A stretch of 64,000 nucleotides of DNA from Eledone cirrhosa (Eukaryota). Under the pieces are notes generated by a model. The model had not been told where the DNA came from. It ran no database searches and saw only the letters and a program-made list of their open reading frames with translations. Positions within the stretch are counted from its first letter, which is position 1; the number at the start of each line of letters is the position of its first letter. Shown in pieces: positions 7,320 to 63,475 of the stretch. The DNA lies in NCBI GenBank assembly GCA_964016885.1, contig OZ024746.1:99324001-99388000 (forward strand). Direction: 5' to 3'. A program made the translations under genes and the position numbers.

Positions 7320-8600
7320 CACACACACCCACATGTATATATATATTCCCCACCATCAATAATACTAACACCCACTAACACCCTCTCTACCACACACACA
7401 CACTCATCCAAACACGCACACACACACACCAGTACGTACACTACACTCCCTCCTCCGTCCCCAACACCTTTTCTCTCCCTCTCCCTCCCCCCGCTCCACC
7501 TACACCCCTTCACACACACATCCCATTAACACCTCCACTAATATACACCCCATCCCCCACACCACCACCTTCTCCCTCCACCTTTCACACCTACCCATCC
7601 TCTCCCCTGTCCACCGCACCTCCGCACACACGGACACAGTCCACACCACATACAGACCCTTTCTTCACCTGTCATCCTCATCTACTGTTATCTCTTTACC
7701 CTCTGACCACTTCCTATTGCGCGCGCACCCCACATTTCTCCACTTCCGCACTACCACAACAGGTTTTCACACCACCGGTCATCGCTCCAGCTATCCACTC
7801 CATAACACGTGGAATCTCCAGGATCTTGTCTCACACTCCACGGAACTACCTTAGTAACTTACCCAAGAACAAACACTCACATTATTTTCGAACCACGTCT
7901 CTTACATCCACACCACGTATAAACACAAACACACTCGTGCGTATCCCCACATACACACACTCAGACTCCGGAATCCACCTGCCTGTCCCCCCTCCCCTCT
8001 ATCCACACGCACGCACACACCGACTTACACCCCACTGCATGTACACACCGGCTCCCCTTTACCTGAACATGGAACCTCGTTCCTCCCCCAACTCTCACAT
8101 TCACATACACACACACACGCACATACACACATACACATACACCACCTTCAGCCCTCCCCGCATGGACTCCCCCCCCCCAGCCACTCCACCCCATCCACCT
8201 GCCACCACGCCTACACGCCTCACACCCTTCCACCACTTGTTTATTTTTATGTTTAATTTTGTTTTTATTTGTACTTCTAAAAAAAAAAAATCGACCCCCC
8301 CCCCTTTTTTTTAAAATGTTTTTCCACCACTCCCCCACACACCCTCGGAACTATCTTCCTACCCACTTTTCTCCTGATGAAGGGCTTATGTCTGAAACGT
8401 CCCCCCCCTTTTTTTAAAATGTTTTTCCACCACTCCCCCACACACCCTCGGAACTATCTTCCTACCCACTTTTCTCCTGATGAAGGGCTTATGTCTGAAA
8501 CGTCCCCCCCCCCACACACACTCTCAAAAGCGTGAACCTAATAAACTACCATTTTTACTGCCTCTCTGTTTTTTCTTCCTGTCTAATATTTAACTATATT
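7320..8600 (+). mobile_element. C/A-rich Penelope-like element remnant ending in a duplicated HHR
   Basis: Homologous to the reverse complement of 28580-30390 (shared cacttcct.ttgcgcgcgcaccccac and ccaccttcagccctccccg). HHR motifs near the 3' end, followed by (TA)n. Confidence 0.6.
8366..8510 (+). ncRNA. Two tandem minimal type I HHR motifs, 103 bp apart (cores at 8374 and 8477)
   Basis: CTGATGA-AGGGC-TTAT-GTCT-GAAAC-GTC, twice. Confidence 0.7.
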
Positions 8601-9084: not shown

Positions 9085-9150
9085 TATTTTATTATATATA
9101 TTTCAGAGGTACTGTGCTGTTTCCTCAGTACGTCCTCATCAGATAAAATA
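9085..9150 (-). ncRNA. Type I HHR
   Basis: Minus strand: tattttat-CTGATGA-GGACGTACTG-loop-CAGTACCTCT-GAAA-TATATA-TA-ataaaata. Confidence 0.65.
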
Positions 9151-9305: not shown

Positions 9306-9712
9306 ATACTTTGGGAGGGTCATGTTGCCAATAAGAAACACACGCACCAGTTGCTTTCACTCCAATTTATTAATTAAATTATAAATTTTAAAATTTATTA
9401 ATTTCCGGTTGGTTGGTTGCTTCCACAACCGGACGGTTGTTTATATATTGTCAAAGTTCTTTCGCCACACATTCTGTGACCTCTTCAGTGACTGGGGATT
9501 CTTCTCTTTGTTTTGTGCCTCTCCTTTGTTCTGTCCTACGCCATCTTGTTTTTATGTGTGACGAAAGAACTTTGACAATATATAAACAACCCTCCGGTTG
9601 TGGAAGCAACCAACCAACCGGAAATTTATACATTTTAAAATTAATAATTTAGTTAAAAAATTGGTGCATGTGTTTGTTATTGGCAACATGACCCTCCCAA
9701 AGTATAACAATA
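9301..9712. repeat. Long inverted repeat (arms about 170 bp) beside (TA)n
   Basis: ttgttatactttgggagggtcatgttgccaataa ... ttattggcaacatgaccctcccaaagtataacaa. A related single copy lies at 56805-57030. Confidence 0.85.
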
Positions 9713-9903
9713 TCGGTTTCAACACACGTTTTCAGATGAAGAATCTTGCTAAACAAATTCAGAAACGATATATATATATATATATATATTTGAGGAAAGT
9801 CGGGACTCTTAGAAGATAACGAAACATATTTCATTAGCTTTACTTTTTTTGTAGTGTAACTAACACTAACACTTTGTACTGCATTCTTCGCTTTGTTTTT
9901 TGT

Positions 9904-10610: not shown

Positions 10611-12543
10611 TGACTGTCGTGTGGCTGGACTATCAAAAAGCATTTGATAGTGTACCTCATGGGTGGATTATTAAGGCTTTACAGTTAGCTAAAGTCCCAC
10701 AACCATTAGTAGCTGCTGTTGAACGCCTGACCAAGAACTGGTACACCAATTTGATCCTTAGAGGTGAGAAGGAGCAGGTTAAGACTGATAGGATACATTA
10801 CCAGAAGGGCATCTTTCAGGGTGATAGCTTGTCAGTACTACTCTTCGTTCTCTCACTGAATCCACTATCTTACCTACTCAGGAAACAAGGTGGACAAAGA
10901 AGTGGGCCCAGAAGTATCTCCCATCTTTTCTTTGTTGATGACCTGAAGTTGTATGGGCCAAATATCAATGACATCAAGAAACAATTGGACCTCATTACAC
11001 AATTTTCAACCGACATCAAAATGAAATTTGGTGAGTCCAAGTGTGCATATTTGGCAGTAAAACGTGGAAGAGCTGTGCCCTCCTCTAGAAATCTAGATAT
11101 GAACGGCCTGACAATACAACCTCTGCAGTCAGGTGACAACTACAGATATCTTGGACAGGATGAGAATATCAGATATGATGGACCCATAAATAAGGAGAGA
11201 ACCAGAACTGAATACCTCAGAAGAGTAAAAAAAATATGGTCATCAGAACTGTCAGCATACAACAAATACATTGCCCACAATACCTATGCTGTGCCAATTC
11301 TAACGCCAACATTTGGCCTACTGAACTGGTCATTGCAAGAACTAAGTGAGATGGATGTTAGAACTCGTAAACTTCTCAGTGTTACTGGGAACTTTGACAT
11401 CAATGGTGATGTGGATAGGCTATACTTCTCACGCAAGGAAGGTGGCCGGGGTTTAAATCAATATTAACAACATATGAGATCCGGATAGTAACACTGAAGC
11501 AACACCTTCAACAGAGGAAAAAGGTTGGCGACCATCTTGCTCAGGTTTATGAGCATGAAAAAAGAAATATCATTAGAATAGCGACTGATCTGGAGGAGAG
11601 ATATGGAATAAAGCCTGATATAAATCTCTCACTCAGAGAAATCGGAAGATCCTATTCAATGTTCAAACAAGAAAAAAAAATTGACCAATTTACAGAGAAA
11701 GTTGTGCATGGATACTTGAGGCGTAAAACACAGACCATAGAGGGGATAAACCACTCAAAAAGCCTGGCATGGAGTTCCGACAAGTTTATGACATCACACC
11801 TTGAGGGATATCTCTATGCAATACAGGAACAAGAACTCCCTGCCAAATATCTGCTGCACAAAAGAGGAGGGCCAGCAGCTGACAATAAATGTAGGCTATG
11901 TAAAACAAAGATCGAGGATGTAAGCCACATTGTTGCCAGCTGCGAAAGAATGTCATCTCGCTACTACCTCCCCATGAGACACGATGGGATAGCTAGAACT
12001 ATCTGGAACGCACTTCGGAAAACAAAATTAACAACAAACGAGGAAGAATATATTGAGACAGATGGCACTAAGGAATACTGGTGGAACCTGAAAATAAAAA
12101 CTGCCACCAAATTAAAGCACAACCGGCCTGATATTGTAGTTTGGGACCACACATTGAAAACGTGTTCTGTTGTGGAGATCAGCTGCCCACTTGATGTAAA
12201 CGTTGTCAGAAAAATACAGGAGAAGGAGGACATCTACGGACCATTGATGAGGAGCTTACAAATCCAGTATCCAAGATACACCTTTAGCTTCATACCCATC
12301 ATTATTGGTGCTACGGGTTATATACCAACCCGCTTGGACCAAAGTATGACCGAACTTGGATTTGCGGACAAAAAGCGCAGCTCCCTAATTCATAGTCTAC
12401 AAATGGCTGCGATAGCTGGCACCTTCAAAATATGCAAAACATTCTTGCGATTCAAGGGATGACAATTTCTTTTCTTTTACAACCTTGCCACCAGGAAGGT
12501 GGCCGGTCAAAAAAATATACTCGAAATTAAGAGAAAGAGAAAA
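10611..12543 (+). mobile_element. R4/Dong-clade non-LTR retrotransposon, 5'-truncated (RT, CCHC finger, restriction-like endonuclease), one frameshift near 11457
   Basis: LDYQKAFDSVPH, GIFQGDSLS, SHLFFVDDLKLY, DRLYFSRKEGGRGL, CRLCK..EDVSHIVASC, RHD, HNRPDIVVWD..VEISCP. Flanked on both sides by (CATA)n. Confidence 0.92.
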
Positions 12544-15902: not shown

Positions 15903-16092
15903 AACTTTCTATTTTTGGCACAAGGCCAGCTATTACCTCAGTGCATTACTGGTACTTTATTTTATCAACCCTCGTAAGAATGAAAGGCAAAGTTAACCTC
16001 GGCAGGATTTGAACTCCGACCGTAAAGGGACGTAACTCTATGCTGCAAAGCATGGCGCCCGACTCTCTACTGATACTGCCAATCCACCGCCC
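15903..16092 (-). mobile_element. tRNA-derived SINE
   Basis: Same family as 6257-6440. Flanked by the direct repeat aacaaacttaataac, a target-site duplication. Confidence 0.88.
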
Positions 16093-16148: not shown

Positions 16149-16590
16149 ATAGAATTAGCATTTACCTTCAGGTATAGCTGTATACATATATGTATAGAAA
16201 TTTCGTATTTCTAAGAAAACACGGTATGTTTACAGGTAAACATTTAGAAAGCTATGCAAAAAGCACCGGCGTTAACGCCCTCTACTGGTGTCCAGCAGAA
16301 GCAAGGGGGACAATCGTCGATGCATTTCGGACTTAACTGGTCCTCATCAGGATAATCCCTTCCCCTCTTGCTACTGTTGGACTTGAAAACAGTCGAGAAT
16401 ATATAGTTTTCTCGTCTGTGTAAATGAGGTGATTAATCTCATTTGCATATGAAGCTGCATAAGTTGGCTCAACTTAGAATAGAATAGAATTAGGATTTAG
16501 CTTCAGGCATAGCTGTATACAATATGTATAGAAATTTCGTATTTCTAAGGAAACGCTGTATGTTTAGAAGTAAACATTTAGAAAGCCGTA
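16149..16590 (-). mobile_element. Retrozyme-like element, about 1.3 units of a 335-bp monomer
   Basis: A direct repeat of about 105 bp at 16149 and 16484 flanks an HHR and is similar to the 311-bp unit. Confidence 0.75.
16300..16372 (-). ncRNA. Type I HHR
   Basis: Minus strand: agcaagaggggaagggattatc-CTGATGA-GGAC-CAGTTAA-GTCC-GAAA-TGC-ATC-gacgattgtccccttgct. Helix III palindrome ATGCAT. Confidence 0.85.
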
Positions 16591-16759
16591 ACTATGCAAA
16601 TTTATCGCTGTGAGTAAAGGAATTACTTGTGTCTTTATTAACACTGTTTCCGCTTGGCTCTTTATATTTCCGTTATATTTCCGGAATTTTCCTGCCTTAG
16701 GTTTCCGTTATATTCCATTATATTCCGTTAATATATTCATATAAATGTCGTTGCCAATC

Positions 16760-17560
16760 CACCATAGACTCTTTCCGCCCTCACCCACTCTCCTGTTGCT
16801 ACAGTGCTGGCCGTCTTCCACGCCATGCTGCTCTTAATGATGTCATAAAGCAAGGCTTGGGTGTTGCAGGCGTCCCCTCCCAACTCGAGCCAGCGAGGCT
16901 TGACTGATGGAACGGCAAAAGGCCAGACGGCATGACCATCTCCTCGTTTCGCGTTGGTAAAACCCTCATTTGGGATGCCACATGCAGCGACACATTCTCC
17001 TGTGTTAACCTGGTGCAGTCTGAGACTAACCCAGGCTCTGCTGCACTTCAGGACGAGAAGGGTAAACTCACCTAGTATCGGTCGCGCTCCAACAGGTTTG
17101 CAGTCGAGCCTGTAGCAGTGGAGACTTCTGGTGTCCTTGGCCCTAGGACCACCTCCCTACTTACCACCATCAGCACCCCGTAGCAGTAGAGACTTCTGGT
17201 GTACATTGGCCCTAGGACCACCTCCCTACTTACCACCATCAGCACCCCGTAGCAGTAGAGACTTCTGGTGTCCTTGGCCCTAGGACCACCTCCCTACTTA
17301 CCACCTCAGCACCCCATAACAGTGGAGACTTCTGGTGTCCTTGGCCCTAGGACACCTCCCTACTTACCACCATCACCACCCGGTAGCAGTAGAAACTTCT
17401 GGTTTCCTTGGCCCTAGGCCACCTCCCTACTCACCACCATCGGCACGAAGGTGGCTACCCACACGTGAGAGCCTCGCGAGCTGGAATGGCTCTTCCAACG
17501 CATCTCCCTCACCATCCTCCGGAGAAACGGGGCCCCATTTTCTTATAGTAGTGAGAGATG
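16760..17560 (+). mobile_element. CRE-type LINE 3' remnant with a 68-bp internal tandem repeat (about 5 units, 17112-17445)
   Basis: GRLPRHAALNDVIKQGLGVAGVPSQLEP..GKRPDGMT..GKTLIWDATCSDT, with in-frame stops. Confidence 0.85.
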
Positions 17561-18136: not shown

Positions 18137-18244
<108 letters not shown>

Positions 18245-18344: not shown

Positions 18345-18590
18345 AATATTATTCAAAATATTAACAAATGAAGAATATTCTCATAATCAAAATATATACT
18401 TTATTATACATATTTCAAAGGTACTATGGTGTTTAAGTACGTTTTCATCAGACCGTAGTGGTATGTCACATCATATATTTTGTTTGATGAAAACGTACTT
18501 AAACACCACAGTACCTTTGAAATATGTATAATAAAGTATATATTTTGATTATGAGAATATTCTTCATTTGTTAACATTTTGAATAATATA
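18345..18590. repeat. Inverted repeat carrying an HHR in each arm (minus-strand core 18445-18451 intact, plus-strand arm mutated to TTGATGA)
   Basis: CTGATGA-AAACGTACT-loop-AGTACCTTT-GAAA-TATG-TA. Same family as 9085, 30391 and 50500. Confidence 0.75.
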
Positions 18591-19281: not shown

Positions 19282-19450
19282 GTGAGTTTTTTTTTACAAA
19301 ATGAAAAATAACCGAGGTGTCCTACACGAGTGAAAGTATAAAGAAAAAAAGATGAAAACGAAAATGTAACTGGAGTCTTATTTAAAAAAAATTATATATA
19401 TATTAATTTGGTTCCTTTACCGGTTTCGCAGTTCTTCTGCTTTTCAAAAC
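19275..19450. repeat. Dispersed repeat with a degenerate HHR, second copy at 32419-32660 (palindromic there)
   Basis: ttagaaagtga.tttttttacaaaatgaaaaataaccgagg. Minus strand reads TTGAAAA-GCAG-AAGAA-CTGC-GAAA-CCGG-TA. Confidence 0.7.
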
Positions 19451-19822: not shown

Positions 19823-21899
19823 TAGAGTTTTTACATATGGCATTGGTATATATAGATACAACGGAGAATCAAAACAATAACATCAATAATAAAAGATAAT
19901 GATAAAGAGGTAAAGAAGTGAAGAAGGTACAGATGTAAAACATAAGTAAAAAAATAATAAGTACAGAATGCGATTGCTGATAATAGTGGTGGTGGTTAGT
20001 AAGTGTATGTATAAAGATAATACTAACATGAAAAGCAACATCAAATATATACATATATACGTGGTGGTCAAATCTCAGAGGGTTAGAAAATAAAAATAGT
20101 AACAAATGACAGATAAAAGATAAAAAATAATAAATGAAAAAATAAGTGATAGGGGAAGAGATACGAGGATGAGACATAAGGGGTAGGGTTAAGGATGGAG
20201 AAGGAGTAGATAGGAGATTTTAACGAACACGCAAACTACTATAACCTAGCTTTACATAAGGCAGGCCATAAGGAGGGGCTCAAATACATACCAGATAGAG
20301 ACAACAACAACAAACCTAACGACATCTACACCACCCATCCCTATAAAAATAACAAAAACATAGAACTAAACATAGAAATAGACAACGAGCATAAGAAATA
20401 ACCGAACTGAACAGTAATGTAGGGACCCCTAGGAACTATAGAAAACCCAGAGATAGGAAATACTTATGGTTCAATCCAATAATCAACTCCTCTATAAAAA
20501 TCAAACTACCTTCTACATTCTTTAAGCTAATTGACAAACACTTCCCTAAACTACACAAATATTATAGAATCTTTAACAGAAAAACTATCAAACTCTCTTA
20601 TTCTACTGCAGCCAACATAGAATCACACATACATAAAATCAACTACAAAGGAATCTCTAAAGAAAATAACCTACCAACATACACCATAGCACCAAATACA
20701 AAACGCAAACACATAACAACATCACAACCACACACACATCAGGGCGCATCACAACAAAACATTAATAAGCCTAAATCTCAGCCCATACATAACAACATAC
20801 AAAACCGCAACGGAGAACCTGCACACAGGAAGGCCTCCACCTGCCGGATAAGTGCCCACTACAAAATAGATGCCTGGAATCAAGTATGGTGTACCTGTGT
20901 ACTATACATTCAGGCAACTTAACATGGTGCTACATAGGTTCCAGGGCTGGGGAATTAAAAAAAAGAAAGATAGTACGTTCACAGACACTCTATGAAGAAC
21001 CGTAGACTAGAGAACTCAACAACGCTGGCCAATAAAATCTGGCAGCTTAAGGACACAAACAGAGAATATGGGATTAGTTGGTTGAAATTATCGGGAGCAA
21101 GGGCCTACAACAACGGAATGTCCCACTGCGGACTTTGCAATATGGAGCTGTTCCATCTTTTAAAGTATGATAAGGTGCTGCTTATCAGCAAAATAGAACG
21201 ATCAATTTTCTGTAGGCACAAAGCAGCTACCAAATTCGCAAATTTCAAACCAGCATGATTCGATCCAGCAATCCCAAAATTCGAACTGAACCACCCGGAT
21301 TTTAATATACTAACTACTTACCTCCCCACTGTTATTAGCTGTCAACTGACCGACTGGTCACTAGATCAACATCATAAATCTCCTAACCTTTCTTTCACTC
21401 TCTCTCTAAAGCCACATCACCCCCATTAAGATAAGGCAATCAGCATGCGAGATATTTACCACACACACACATATATCAAGTCTCTCCATCTCAATTCTTA
21501 TTCTCTATCTACTCCTTCCCCATCCTTAACCCTACCCCTTATGTCTCATCCTCGTATCTCTTCCCCTATCACTTAATTTTTAATTTATTATTTTTTATCT
21601 TTTATCTGTCATTTGTTACTATTTTTATTTTCTAACCCTCTGAGATTTGACCACCACGTATATATGTATGTATTTGATGTTTTCATGTTAGTATTATCTT
21701 TACACATACACTTACTAACCACCACCACTATTATCAGCAATCGCATTCTGTACTTATTATTTTTTTAACTTATTTTTTACATCTGTACCTTCTTCACTCT
21801 AACTCCTTTACCTCTTTATCATTATCTTTTATTATTGATGTTATTGTTTTGATTCTCCGTTGTATCTCTATATACCAATGCCTATATGTAAAAACTCTA

Positions 21900-24157: not shown

Positions 24158-24360
24158 AGTGGAGAATTCTGGTGTCCTTGGCCCTAGGACCACCTCCCTA
24201 CTCACCACCATCAGCACCCCGTAGCAGTGGAGACTTCTGGTGTCCTTGGCCCTAGGACCACCTCCCTACTCACCACCATCAACACCCTATAGCAGTGGAG
24301 ACTTCTGGTGTCCTTGGCCCTAGGGCTACCTCCCTACTCACCACCATAAGCGCTATGGTG
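24158..24360 (+). repeat. Three 68-bp tandem units of the CRE-derived segment
   Basis: gtagcagtggagacttctggtgtccttggccctaggaccacctccctactcaccaccatc repeated. Confidence 0.9.
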
Positions 24361-25012: not shown

Positions 25013-26110
25013 TCATTGTAGTGAGGATGGTAATTTTATGTGGTGTAAAGCGGATTTATTATTTAAGTGTGGGCTAATATATGTGAGTATTTCACCTGGT
25101 TTATGGTAAGGGTAATATAGGTTATTGTTAAGATCCAGGGTGACGTCAAGGAAGTTTACTACTTTAGAGTTCGGCTCGATGGTGATAGAGAGACCGTTAT
25201 TTTTAAAGAATTTATGTAATTGTTTTTTGAGCAAATCAATGCCCCGATTAGTGCAATTGTGGACTGCAAATAGGGTGTCGTCCCTGTATATTCCGCCTTG
25301 CAAAGGTTGGATTTCGGCTCTGATGTTATGTAATAGGTAAATTCCAACTAAATCGGTGATTTGCGCAGAGTCACTTGAGCCCATCGTGATGTCAAAGTTG
25401 TCTGTTCTGTCTTTTCTAGTCCAGAGTGCTCCGTTGAATTCAATGATGCTCTGCCTAGCCATAAGTATGATGTCAATATCATTATTGGTTATGTCCGAGT
25501 TGGTGCTGGCTAGGGTTAATGCTTTGTTGAGCAGTTCCCGGGTTATTGAAGCGTAATAGCTGTCAATGTCAAATTGGATGAACCTCATAGATTGCTTGGA
25601 CCTTAGATCGGAGAACCATCTAATGACTTGGCCGGTGTTGGACCACAACTTGTAGGTGATATCGTCCCGTATCAAGGATGTTCTTACTGATACGACCCAG
25701 GTCGAATGTGGTTGGGCTTATAAGTCTAATAGATGGGTTCTCTATAAAGTTTGGCTTATGATCCTTGAGAGAAAACCTTGTGGTTGTATGTACATAAGGG
25801 TGGGTAAATCTATCCAGATGCAAGTCCTTAACCAAAGCCTGGGCTTTTCGGTTAAGTACGTTTACACTGGAGGGTATAGTTTTTTTATAGTTTTTATTAA
25901 GTTCCTTAAGAAGGAAAGAGTTGTAAGTTTCAGGAGTCATGGTGTATAGATTTTTAGTTTTGTCAGACATAACATGTAAGAGGTGGCTATCTTTAAATTT
26001 TTTAATAGTTGTTGCTAATTTTGTGAGGAAATTATTCTTGTGTCTATAATGCTTTTTGAATTTAATGCTCCTGACGAAGTTGAATAGATCTTTCTCAAAA
26101 GGGTCAGCAG
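25013..26110 (-). mobile_element. Penelope-like reverse transcriptase remnant (frameshift or deletion near 25660)
   Basis: SDKTKNLY, LKDHKPNF..IRLISP, FDIDSYYASI, MGSSDSAQITDLVG, YRDD, VNFLDVTLDL..PYHKP. Same strand as the downstream HHR at 24556. Confidence 0.9.
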
Positions 26111-26500
26111 GATGTTGTGTGGGGGGCTCTTGCAGGTGGTAAATCTGCATTGTCACTCAATTAACAATTAGCACTTAACTATAAACTACCCACAATTTCT
26201 AATCTCTCGAGGAGTTACTTCCCCTGAAACCACCCTCTAATTAGTAAGGTAAATATGTCCATTGGCGGCCACCTTGTTACCCATAGGCAGATCTCACACA
26301 ATGCAGCCTCGACAGATGAATACTGCTTGATTATGGCTGACAATTGATACCCCCAGGACACCATAAATTTGGACATTATTTGCAATTTTTATGTTTTATT
26401 AATAATAAAACAAAAATAATATTCGCTTTAAATATATTTTTTTACTACACTCCTAAAATGTTTCTCCTCGGTAAAGAATTAACATTCATGAAAGAATGTT

Positions 26501-28581: not shown

Positions 28582-30390
28582 GGAAAATTTGAACAGGAAC
28601 AAAACAGAGAGGCAGTACAACGAATGTTTATTAATTTCACGCTCTGGAGAGTGGGGTGGTGGTGGGGGACGACGTTTCGGGCATAAGCCCTTCCTCAGGT
28701 GAGAAGTGTGTGGGAAGAGAGTTCAAAGGGTGTGTAGGGGAGTGGTGGAGAGACATATAGCGAAAAGGGGGTGGGAGGAAACGGTGCGAATGAAATTAAA
28801 AATAAAAATAAAAATAAAGCATGATCAAAATAAAATGAAATGCAATAAAAATAAAAGCATGATCAAAATAAACTGAAATTAAAAAGGGGGTAAAACAGGT
28901 GGTGGAAGGGTGTGTTGGGGTGGTGGCGGGTGGAGTGGGGAGAGGGAGACGGGGTGTCCGAGCGGGGAGGGCTGAAGGTGGTGTGTGTGTGTACGTGTGT
29001 GTGTGTGTATGTGAAAGCAAGGGTTGGGGGAAGAACGGGGTTGCATGTTCAGGAAGAGGTGGTATGTGCGTGTGTGGATAGAGGGGTGGGGGGAGAGGAA
29101 TCCGGAGGCTGAAGGTGTAAATATGTGGTGGAAAGCACGTGTGTGTGGTGTTTAAGTGTGTTGTGGGTGTAGGTGGCGTGTGGGAGAAAAAAAATGTTTT
29201 TGGGTGTGTGTGTGGGTGAGTTATATAGGTGATTCCGTAAGAGGATGTGGTTGAAATGTTGGTAAACTCCTATGATGGTAGTAGATTCCACGGTCAAGCT
29301 CCACATACGAGTATTCCATGAAGAGATGGTCGGAAGAGGAGAGATGTGGGGTGCGCGCGCAACAGGAAGTGGTCAAGGCGGTAGGAGTTTTGTGTGTCTG
29401 TGTGGGCTCGGGGGTGGTCAGAGGGCATAGCAGCAGTCGGGTGGAATGGTAAAGGGGCGAGGATGGGTAGGTGTGAAAGTTGGAGTGAGGAGGGTGTGTG
29501 TGTGTATTAGTAGAGGTGTTAGTGGGATGAGTGAATGTGGAGAAAGGGTGTGGGTGGAGCGGGGAGAGAAGGGTGTGAGGGTCGATGGAGGGAGTGTGGT
29601 GTACTGGTGTGTGTGTAGTTTGATGAAGGCGGTGTTAGTGGGTGTTAGTATACGGGAGGTGGAGAAAGGGTTGAATGCAGGTGTGAGTGGGGGTTAGTGG
29701 TGGTAGGGTGTGTAGAGTTGGTGGTGTACGAGGGTGTGTGAATACGTGTGCGTGGGGTTGGGGGTGTTAGTGTTGTTAGTTGCGTGTGGGGTGGGTGGTG
29801 TAAGTGGGTGCGTGTGTTCGTGTGCTTGGGGTCAGGGGGTGTTAGTGATGTTAGTTGCGGGGTGGTGGGATGGAGGTGTGGGGGTGAGGGTTAGTGGTGG
29901 TAGTAGGGTGTATGTTTAGTGTGAGCGCGTGTATATATGTGCCGGTGGGTGTGTGCGTGTGATAAGGAGGGAGAAGGGAGGGATGTTAGTATGTTAGTTG
30001 GGGAAGGGTGGTCGGATGAGGGGTGGAGTAGAGGTGTTAGTATTGTTAGTTGTGGGGTGGGCGGTGAAAAGGAGGGGTGTGTTAGTGGTGTTAGTGGGGG
30101 ATATGTGTGGGGGGAGGGGGGCGGTCGAAGGCTAAAGGAATAAGGGTGGGGAGTTCAGGCCGGGGGGGAGTGTGGGTCTGTAAGATGAAGATGGTTCTTT
30201 GTTCAACTCTGAGGAGATTGGCGGGTGTTCCGTGGCATTGGAGTAGGCCACAGACTGTGAGATGGCGTGCGGAATGTCCAGGGGCACCAAAGTGACGGGC
30301 GATGGGGGAACTACCACCGAGACGAATATCCCGGAGGTGCTCAGTGAATCGGTCCGCCAGGCGACGTCCCGTCTGTCCGACGTAAGTATC
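28580..30390 (-). mobile_element. G/T-rich (plus strand) Penelope-like element, longer relative of 7320-8600
   Basis: Collinear homology to the 7.3-8.6 kb copy, HHR near its 3' end, abuts (TA)n. Confidence 0.6.
28661..28706 (-). ncRNA. Minimal type I HHR
   Basis: Minus strand: CTGAGGA-A-GGGC-TTAT-GCCC-GAAAC-GTC-GTC. Confidence 0.75.
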
Positions 30391-30460
30391 ATTTTATTTT
30401 ATCTGATGAGGACGTACTGTTGAACTTGATTCAGTACCTCCGAAATATGTATAATAAAAT
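30391..30460 (+). ncRNA. Type I HHR
   Basis: attttattttat-CTGATGA-GGACGTACTG-loop-CAGTACCTCC-GAAA-TAT-GTA-taataaaat. Confidence 0.75.
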
Positions 30461-30737: not shown

Positions 30738-30778
30738 CGATACTGATGACAGCTAATAAGCTAGAAACTAGTTCATCC
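30738..30778 (+). ncRNA. Minimal type I HHR
   Basis: CTGATGA-CAGC-TAATAA-GCTA-GAAAC-TA-GTT. Helix III palindrome AACTAGTT. Confidence 0.65.
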
Positions 30779-34122: not shown

Positions 34123-35153
34123 CTTTTTTTTTCTCTTTCTCTTAATTTCGAGTATATTTTTTTGACCGGCCACCTTCCTGGTGGCAAGGTTGTAAAAGAA
34201 AAGAAATTGTCATCCCTTGAATCGCAAGAATGTTTTGCAAATTTTGAAGGTGCCAGCTATCGCAGCCATTTGTAGACTATGAATTAGGGAGCTGCGCTTT
34301 TTGTCCGCAAATCCAAGTTCAGTCATACTTTGGTCCAAGCGGGTTGGTATATAACCCGTAGCACCAATAATGATGGGTATGAAGCTAAAGGTGTATCTTG
34401 GATACTGGATTTGTAAACTCCTCATCAATGGTCCGTAGATGTCCTCCTTCTCCTGTATTTTTCTGACAACGTTTACATCAAGTGGGCAGCTGATCTCCAC
34501 AACAGAACACGTTTTCAATGTGTGGTCCCAAACTACAATATCAGGGCGGTTGTGCTTTAATTTGGTGGCAGTTTTTATTTTCAGGTTCCACTAGTATTCC
34601 TTAGTGCCATCTGTCTCAATATATTCTTCCTCGTTTGTTGTTAATTTTGTTTTCCGAAGTGCGTTCCAGATGGTTCTAGCTATCCCATCGTGTCTCATGG
34701 GGAGGTAGTAGCGAGATGACATTCTTTCGCAGCTGGCAACAATGTGGCTTACATCCTCGATCTTTGTTTTACATAGCCTACATTTATTGTCAGCTGCTGG
34801 CCCTCCTCTTTTGTGCAGCAGATATTTGGTAGAGAGTTCTTGTTCCTGTATTGCATAGAGATATCCCTCAAGGTGTGATGTCATAAACTTGTCGGAACTC
34901 CATGCCAGGCTTTTTGAGTGGTTTATCCCCTCTATGATCTGTGTTTTACGCCCCAAGTATCCATGCACAACTTTTTCTGTAAATTGGTCAATTTTTTTTT
35001 CTTGTTTGAACATTGAATAGGATCTTCCGATTTCTCTGGGTGAGAGATTTATATCAGGCTTTATTCCATATCTCTCCTCCAGATCAGTCGCTATTCTAAT
35101 GATATTTCTTTTTTCATGCTCATAAACCTGGGCAAGATGGTTGCCAACCTTTT
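34123..35153 (-). mobile_element. R4/Dong-clade LINE, second 5'-truncated copy with a premature stop
   Basis: Near-identical to 11520-12543. TGG has become TAG after GTKEY. Confidence 0.92.
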
Positions 35154-35472
35154 TCCTTCCCTCCTTAACCTCTCACATATACGATGATCATCTGTCCAAA
35201 AGCTGCCTACTATATTTTTTCACTTCCTCAATGTATTTCTCTCTCCCATATCTCCTTGTCTCTCTGTCTCGCTCTGTTGTTTTTCTTTACATACATCTCT
35301 TCATCTTCTTCTTTTTTTTATTTACATACATCTCTTCATCTTCTTCTTCTCATCTTCGTTTTTCTTTCTATATAACTGTCATAACAGTTTCACTACCAAA
35401 TCAACTTTTTAAATGGAAGTTGCATTATTATAAGGTATGTCAATAATTATTTATAAAACAGCTTATGTATTG

Positions 35473-43581: not shown

Positions 43582-43582
<1 letters not shown>

Positions 43583-63229: not shown

Positions 63230-63475
63230 ATATATAAGATCAAAAGATGGTTAAAAGAGTTCCATGTATTTTATTATGCGCATTTCAAAACTACATCAAT
63301 CTAAAACTACTTTTCATATGTTGATTTAAAACTGCACTATCCACAAGTGTGTTTTAACCTTCATATCATGTCTCCCTATTTTATCTGACGAAAACGCAAA
63401 TGTTATTGCATGATGATATTTGTTTTTGAAATGCGCATAATAAAATACATGGAACTCTTTTAACCATCTTTTGAT

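Follow-up and report, generated by a model that had tools for sequence, protein, structure and literature searches.

The window considered here is a stretch of 64,000 nucleotides from the genome of Eledone cirrhosa (contig OZ024746.1, positions 99,324,001–99,388,000). Its positions 16149–16600 hold an insertion that, judged from its sequence, is a decayed copy of an abundant non-coding hammerhead repeat, termed family A. The features of this insertion and of its relatives in the window are as follows.

16149..16600, minus strand: whole family A insertion (subfamily A1), equal to 1.33 of the 341-nt units
16319..16350, minus strand: type I hammerhead core (from the sequence, and from subfamily A2, in which helices I and II have changed in a compensatory way)
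16290..16381, minus strand: extended helix I surrounding the core (folds of the copy and of the family majority; alignment)
16507..16597, minus strand: complete copy of the shared four-way domain (covariance model, 130 bits)
16149..16257, minus strand: the domain covered a second time, up to site I at unit position 176 (alignment, covariance model)
16560..16577, minus strand: AUGUUUA/UAAACAU hairpin, core of the motif quoted in the first-pass annotation, missing from A2; second copy at 16226–16243
16449..16506, minus strand: stem with an unpaired pyrimidine-rich loop of about 20 nt, which holds site I, and a capping hairpin (folds)
43582..49289, unstranded: young back-to-back array of family B, bounded by (TA)n, with unit positions 167 and 140 at its outer limits
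54287..54393, minus strand: D-type family fragment, whose end is at site I and adjoins (TA)n (found with a profile of the shared part)

The family A insertion and its class

Numbered from the predicted ribozyme cut, the insertion runs through unit positions 59–341 and then 1–176, and it is identical to the family A majority at 427 of 452 aligned bases, with 7 gap bases. A direct repeat (16149–16252 and 16484–16586; 104 columns, 91% identity, period 335) flanks the minus-strand hammerhead, as the first-pass annotation had described with a repeat of about 105 bp. The limits given there hold in part: the repeat is real, but the copy runs to 16600 instead of 16590 and the family unit is 341 nt instead of 335 nt. 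Relative to this unit, the window copy carries a 6-nt deletion. Its designation as a 1.3-mer is apt and typical of the family; in a position-ordered sample (see below), 36 of 161 arms exceed one unit, the longest is 1.76 units and none reaches two.

The hammerhead is of type I and has the helix II, ATGCAT palindrome and extended helix I already recognised in the first pass. It consists of CUGAUGA (16350–16344), helix II GGAC/GUCC, GAAA, the palindromic helix III AUGCAU (16325–16320) and the AUC triplet, after which cleavage is predicted between 16319 and 16318. Decay of a CpG adjoining the core (16354–16353) leaves helix I of this copy with one mismatch and one wobble, so that its ribozyme is probably impaired; a search of the locus against Rfam gave no hammerhead match at E up to 10. 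The copy has one arm only and is flanked by AT-rich sequence which is not a repeat. A target-site duplication was not found beyond a chance-like AT-rich match of at most 5 nt, and DNA runs compared with the locus added nothing, holding no record that spans the empty site.

Throughout the 3.0-Gb genome, a first look gave 3731 family A candidates (40 scored) spread over many chromosomes. The circularly permuted unit was reconstructed from the 30 top copies, from which individual copies diverge by 5.7% outside CpG and by 18% at CpG. No reading frame for reverse transcriptase (RT) plus GIY-YIG is present in the unit; the longest stop-free frames are 64 aa in A1 and 108 aa in A2. The A2 unit is 322 nt and shows compensatory changes in ribozyme helices I and II. 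Among 80 family A loci, the core and helices I–II are intact in 22, the core only in 29 and neither in 29.

Non-LTR retrozymes are an already known class. Family A, a short, dispersed, non-coding unit without LTRs and with a type I hammerhead bearing helices I–III, is like the metazoan members reported by Cervera and de la Pena (2020; PMC7229834), whose mussel units are 350–390 nt, in its hammerhead type, its non-coding unit of 300–350 nt, low GC content, lack of LTRs, highly paired predicted circle and presence of several families per genome. Those elements were described as tandem arrays, whereas family A copies are dispersed 0.1–1.8-mers whose repeat length differs from copy to copy. Plant LTR retrozymes have type III hammerheads and fixed LTRs, in contrast to the type I fold and variable repeat length found here. 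Like the vertebrate retrozymes in a recent preprint (Li, Clavereau and Pollet, 2026; 10.64898/2026.07.22.740005), family A has many monomeric copies and co-occurs with Penelope-like elements; it would fall outside the two-ribozyme definition of 'active' elements in that preprint because its arms reach at most 1.76 units.

Other repeats lie in and near the window. A very common SINE-like repeat of about 190 bp (15906–16092) adjoins the family A element and occurs also at L062, L082 and L064; it has an apparent ATTAT insertion site, and at two or more loci it interrupts family A, at position 180. A 66–68-bp minisatellite is found at 482–2970, 17112–17446 and 24158–24351, in each case beside or within retroelement-like frame fragments. 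A 1029-bp inverted pair (11515–12543 and 34129–35157; 99% identity) has an open frame and is a young element.

Homologous families and a shared folded domain

The first-pass annotation held that a motif in the repeated part resembles the 311-bp unit of family B, in the same position and orientation relative to the ribozyme, and that the two families are diverged sisters. The motif lies at unit positions 76–101 in A and 74–98 in B, at an equal distance from the cut and on the identical strand. The match is modest by itself (strict local score 28 versus 19.6 ± 2.2, equalled by 5 of 1000 shuffles). The sister relationship is well founded, as homology spans the entire unit and is wider than one domain: the two monomers align end to end and fold into one common series of elements, and the proposed alignment against shuffled controls gave a global score of 218 versus −28 ± 31, with none of 1000 shuffles as high.

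End-to-end homology links family A not only with the 311-nt family B but also with four more families or subfamilies. The further families were located with a profile of the shared part, at unrelated loci and at window positions 54287–54393. Family D (320 nt; 2764 candidates) was rebuilt from 29 loci and family E (316 nt; 599 candidates) from 24 loci; family C is represented by single copies only. Pairwise comparisons of families reach z of at least 7 in nine of ten cases, and z is 2.8 for A2 versus D. Pair 3–8 of the hammerhead core is C3-G8 in A and B and U3-A8 in D and E. This variant is known from Penelope-like elements (Cervera and de la Pena, 2014; PMC4209133) and is also present in several Neptune-like elements of this genome. 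Together with the compensatory helix changes in A2, it suggests that the ribozyme is under selection. Older copies intermediate between A and E (L255, L264, L286, L295 and others) point to at least one further family.

Family B forms arrays of head-to-tail units, each with a hammerhead, which reach 19 units per arm and are near-uniform within a locus. The array in the window has 15 of 15 units identical, both arms share an identical majority unit in 9 of 11 loci, and most young loci differ by 0–8 changes. Besides the main 5′-to-5′ junction, the window array contains an internal fold-back of about one unit in its right arm (45077; 47090–47401), which turns at a hairpin near unit positions 118–135. 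Elsewhere (L222; G000:C14:25021000-25030999), B pieces and (TA)n spacers form a higher-order array of at least 270 kb.

Beyond the ribozyme core, the most conserved part of the unit is a four-way domain (55–63 of 90 positions, versus 27–29 of 61 in the adjoining segment). The domain is built from an AUAGC/GCUAU closing stem, an unpaired GGYYUUCWAA linker, whose motif is conserved though unpaired, and three hairpins. In an alignment of 14 genomic domain copies from six families, 92.8% of cells in four helices are paired, and double changes occur in 12 of 26 pairs, where shuffles give 7.1 and slid controls no more than 5; these figures exceed all or nearly all shuffles and every slid control. 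Fold z-scores range from −3.9 to −10.8. The third hairpin and the loop stem were left out of the covariation count because the alignment is out of register there; they are predicted by the fold of each family itself, with ambiguity in A2 (stem) and B (hairpins). Because the structure was derived from the same sequences and the lineages are few (six, related), covariation supports the domain but does not prove it.

What subfamily A2 is missing is precisely the 17-nt ATGTTTA/TAAACAT hairpin; both of the start sites described below are retained. This loss is derived, since B, D, E and A1 carry the hairpin, and A2 is at least as numerous as A1: exact 16-mer matches number 1377 for the A2 junction, 901 for hairpin-bearing A1 and 0 for a control, these being lower bounds and not copy numbers, and the A1 pattern also taking in older related copies. 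The hairpin is thus dispensable, and the quoted motif, of which it is the core, is not itself the signal for the mobilising RT that the first-pass annotation had suggested.

Insertion ends at two fixed sites

In five families, the 3′ ends of copies cluster at two sites 28–40 nt apart, at the edge of the domain, and the 5′ ends scatter. The sites have the following unit positions on the ribozyme strand.

A1: site II about 137; site I 172–181
A2: site II 115–118; site I 151–161
B: site II 140; site I 166–168
D: site II 134–143; site I 169–172
E: site II 126; site I 155

For the position-ordered sample, loci were taken without regard to their ends: going along the largest contig and skipping loci of the earlier samples, the 50 pattern loci met first were used for each of A1 and A2. 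The end windows, covering 16–17% of the circle, had been preset from other samples. The 3′ ends of 130 of 161 arms fell in the preset windows (A1, 61/76; A2, 69/85), versus 19 of the 161 5′ ends (11 in A1 and 8 in A2). The sampling pattern sits just upstream of the sites and therefore favours ends near them; the outcome was the same in samples picked by the ribozyme or by positions 190–270 (60/74). The two sites are likewise used in D (44 of 48 ends), in E (26 of 32) and in B.

More than half of the sampled loci (56/100) are two-armed. Both ends lie at a site in 33 of these, with one end at each site in 29 of the 33, and 23 of the 56 have an end outside the windows. The earlier samples, from which duplicate loci and microsatellite artefacts of D were dropped, gave one site each in 31 of 32, out of 47 pairs, and in family B each arm uses its own site in 12 of 13 loci, one locus at the fetch edge being excluded. 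In the window copy, site I of the complete domain pass is at 16484, inside the pyrimidine-rich loop, and site II is at about 16522, inside the third hairpin. The end of the second pass at site I is the 3′ end of the element and would be the start of reverse transcription, the copy being a lone site I arm.

Flanks are AT-rich and 105 of the 130 site ends adjoin a dinucleotide repeat; most ends close with ...AT and continue into (TA)n. This, the conservation of the unpaired linker and the dispensability of the quoted hairpin would fit an account in which the domain acts as an internal promoter or as a protein-binding site that stabilises, and the ends are fixed only by AU-rich unpaired stretches that pair with nicked (TA)n primers. 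Other AU-rich unpaired stretches, for example near 255–262, are seldom used, however, and free microhomology would not be expected to produce strict pairing of one site each, which makes this account scarcely probable. That the shared domain as a whole marks the RT signal is supported indirectly, by fixed 3′ ends at the domain in five families; the suggestion holds for the whole domain because two-site ends match the footprint described for Penelope-like elements, a 'tail at one end'.

Telomerase-like repeat addition was considered as a source of (CT)n and (CA)n flanks, prompted by 8 of 8 single A1 arms with (CT)n, in which it is absent from the 5′ flank. The idea was dropped on two grounds: unrelated sequence likewise favours (CT)n(AT)n over (AG)n(AT)n, with counts of 25 and 2, and the flanks of young B copies are plain (TA)n. 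This strong polarity of compound microsatellites was counted in 568 kb of sequence lying away from family A; such microsatellites occur at many loci, in the window at 18139–18243 and 59075–59226.

Template, enzyme and mobilisation

The ends described above have close parallels in Penelope-like elements. Anole Poseidon has two internal RT starts between which the tail lies (Frangieh, 2024; PMC11167929), and Penelope-like elements with a 30–40-nt tail at one end only have been reported (Craig, 2021; PMC8557442). The retrozymes share with these elements two internal starts downstream of the hammerhead, a one-end tail of 30–40 nt, inverted 5′-truncated arms and AT-rich or (TA)n targets; unlike them, family A encodes no protein. 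Two further differences concern the anole enzyme (PMC11167929): it starts without homology, whereas starts here have an AU match of a few bases to the target, and its start site was reported to be no different by strand, whereas the two arms here nearly always differ.

Penelope-like elements are abundant in this genome, with about 10,600 GIY-YIG candidates, of which a small part was inspected. They too have two-site, two-arm ends in (TA)n; the spacing of the sites is about 60 nt in two families and 35–40 nt in another two, and most of the elements have the CX2-5CxxC linker of the Neptune and Nematis clades. A search of Penelope 3′ ends, as suggested in the first pass, turned up no copy of the shared domain: it is absent from the 3′ ends and pseudo-LTRs of seven families (profile, covariance model and pairwise alignment), out of a larger number in the genome. 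No helper element was identified. The best guess for a helper, on spacing and core only, is the two Penelope-like families with 35–40-nt tails and U3-A8 cores; their tails do not match the domain, one having been compared solely by profile and covariance model.

Candidate junctions were also inspected. Among 231 loci, two have a Penelope reading frame near the 5′ end, neither convincing, and one has a direct 5′-to-5′ junction with a Penelope arm, the ages being 0.7% versus 5.4%. Hybrid L005 was ruled out as a pointer to the helper by its age mismatch, and hybrid candidates L333 and L013 are ambiguous.

Several Penelope-like sequences lie in the window itself. Ends of two young families are found at 19418–19447 (minus strand) and 9460–9774, and also at L355:1-1905. 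The family of the L005/L355 type has 34,629 candidates, with top copies 96–98% identical in protein, a spacing of 61 nt between its two 3′ sites and no Pfam match over 635 aa. Fragments lie at 25016–26156 (minus strand) and 20395–20919, the first from a family with 33,476 candidates, which we take to be Hydra-like in appearance. At least eight more hammerhead-like cores are present (8298–8511, 9120–9142, 18413–18451, 28675–28698, 30403–30445, 30743–30767, 59012–59033 and 63385–63431); several have a short tail into (TA)n, and they are probably the ends of other Penelope-like families.

In vertebrates, 24 of 57 retrozyme families are homologous to annotated transposons, nearly all of them Penelope-like, and those of Xenopus share homology with pseudo-LTRs (Li, Clavereau and Pollet, 2026; 10.64898/2026.07.22.740005). 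That sampling included no mollusc, and here, where seven families show no homology, the link is the insertion footprint. The repeats might on this ground be pseudo-LTR pieces orphaned from a Penelope-like family that escaped detection, and be copied within its mRNA, as their end footprint equals that of the Penelope-like elements in the genome, whose many candidates were inspected in small part. Copies longer than one unit nevertheless run on into the same repeat unit and not into coding sequence, only the two unconvincing loci above carry a Penelope frame near the 5′ end, and the unit folds as a closed circle with pairing that spans the cut; such an origin is very unlikely.

The reading we prefer, and consider probable, is that family A is a 341-nt non-LTR retrozyme whose template was a small RNA, probably a circle, and whose copying relied on a borrowed Penelope-like RT with two fixed starts beside the domain. 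Arms cross the cut site freely (105/161), and one of 161 begins within 5 nt of it, there being no pile-up of 5′ ends at the cut; the template is therefore a circle or an uncut RNA. Read-through of the cut is also explained by an uncut linear transcript and, since tandem arrays are absent from family A, the case for a circle depends on family B together with this read-through. The B arrays favour a circular template, being near-uniform over as many as 19 units in one arm and mostly sharing their majority unit between arms.

A linear template would imply the same enzyme and start sites, with uncut read-through of a tandem source, the ribozyme as a passenger and long arrays that grow later by unequal exchange. 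The anole element chiefly uses uncut RNA in vitro (PMC11167929), all family A arms are below two units, and eight of nine Xenopus retrozyme dimers were reported without in vitro cleavage (10.64898/2026.07.22.740005). On the other hand, helices I and II and core pair 3–8 are held by compensatory changes across families, no multi-unit source array was seen in about 180 A loci, and long B arms are near-uniform and match across both arms. We regard this alternative as unlikely.

Scars of RNA editing were dropped as a template signature, as they are inconsistent between families. The expected A-to-G excess is present in D (T-to-C 20 versus A-to-G 43), reversed in A1 (ribozyme strand, 58 loci; T-to-C 108 versus A-to-G 64, p 0.003) and absent in A2 and E.

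Under the preferred reading of a borrowed enzyme and a small RNA, the source locus would be transcribed, the hammerhead would cut as a dimer, as proposed because helix III is palindromic, and a host ligase would close the monomer. A Penelope-like RT-endonuclease would then bind the domain and nick both strands of (TA)n or other AT-rich DNA. One nick would prime at site I, in the unpaired loop, and the other at site II, in the third hairpin, each aided by a few bases of AU pairing. Each cDNA would extend backwards past the cut site and stop at random, after at most about 1.8 turns in A and 19 in B, and the two arms would be joined 5′ to 5′, or one would be lost.

More tentatively, and with less confidence than an even chance would express, the domain may be a structure-defined, portable start cassette that docks a Neptune-type Penelope protein, probably dimeric, so that the nicked strands prime one circular RNA at two set positions. 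At least six families would have retained the cassette even as their ribozymes diverged, pair 3–8 included. Its minimal form, by natural variants, would be the closing stem, the unpaired linker, an 8-bp tetraloop hairpin, an AU hairpin and the pyrimidine loop, and sequence homology to the helper would be unneeded.

Mobilisation by Penelope was proposed earlier, and the portions of that paper covered here do not map start sites, two-arm insertions or a shared non-ribozyme domain (PMC7229834). A literature search over main texts found no paper that deals with retrozymes in cephalopods or with the start sites of retrozymes, and the main text of a paper on Octopus vulgaris repeats, in the portions covered, does not mention ribozymes (PMC13282606). 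To the known class, this locus adds family A, a structural comparison of six families, the placement of both starts on the structure and a natural hairpin deletion. The re-entry of retrozymes into DNA, by Penelope enzymes acting on RNA circles, has been proposed but is unmapped in the literature covered. Insertion ends that fall on a covarying RNA structure supply an exact template, predicted start nucleotides and a natural deletion mutant for in vitro work, and they bear on the choice of internal start sites by Penelope-like RTs, the closest relatives of telomerase RT.
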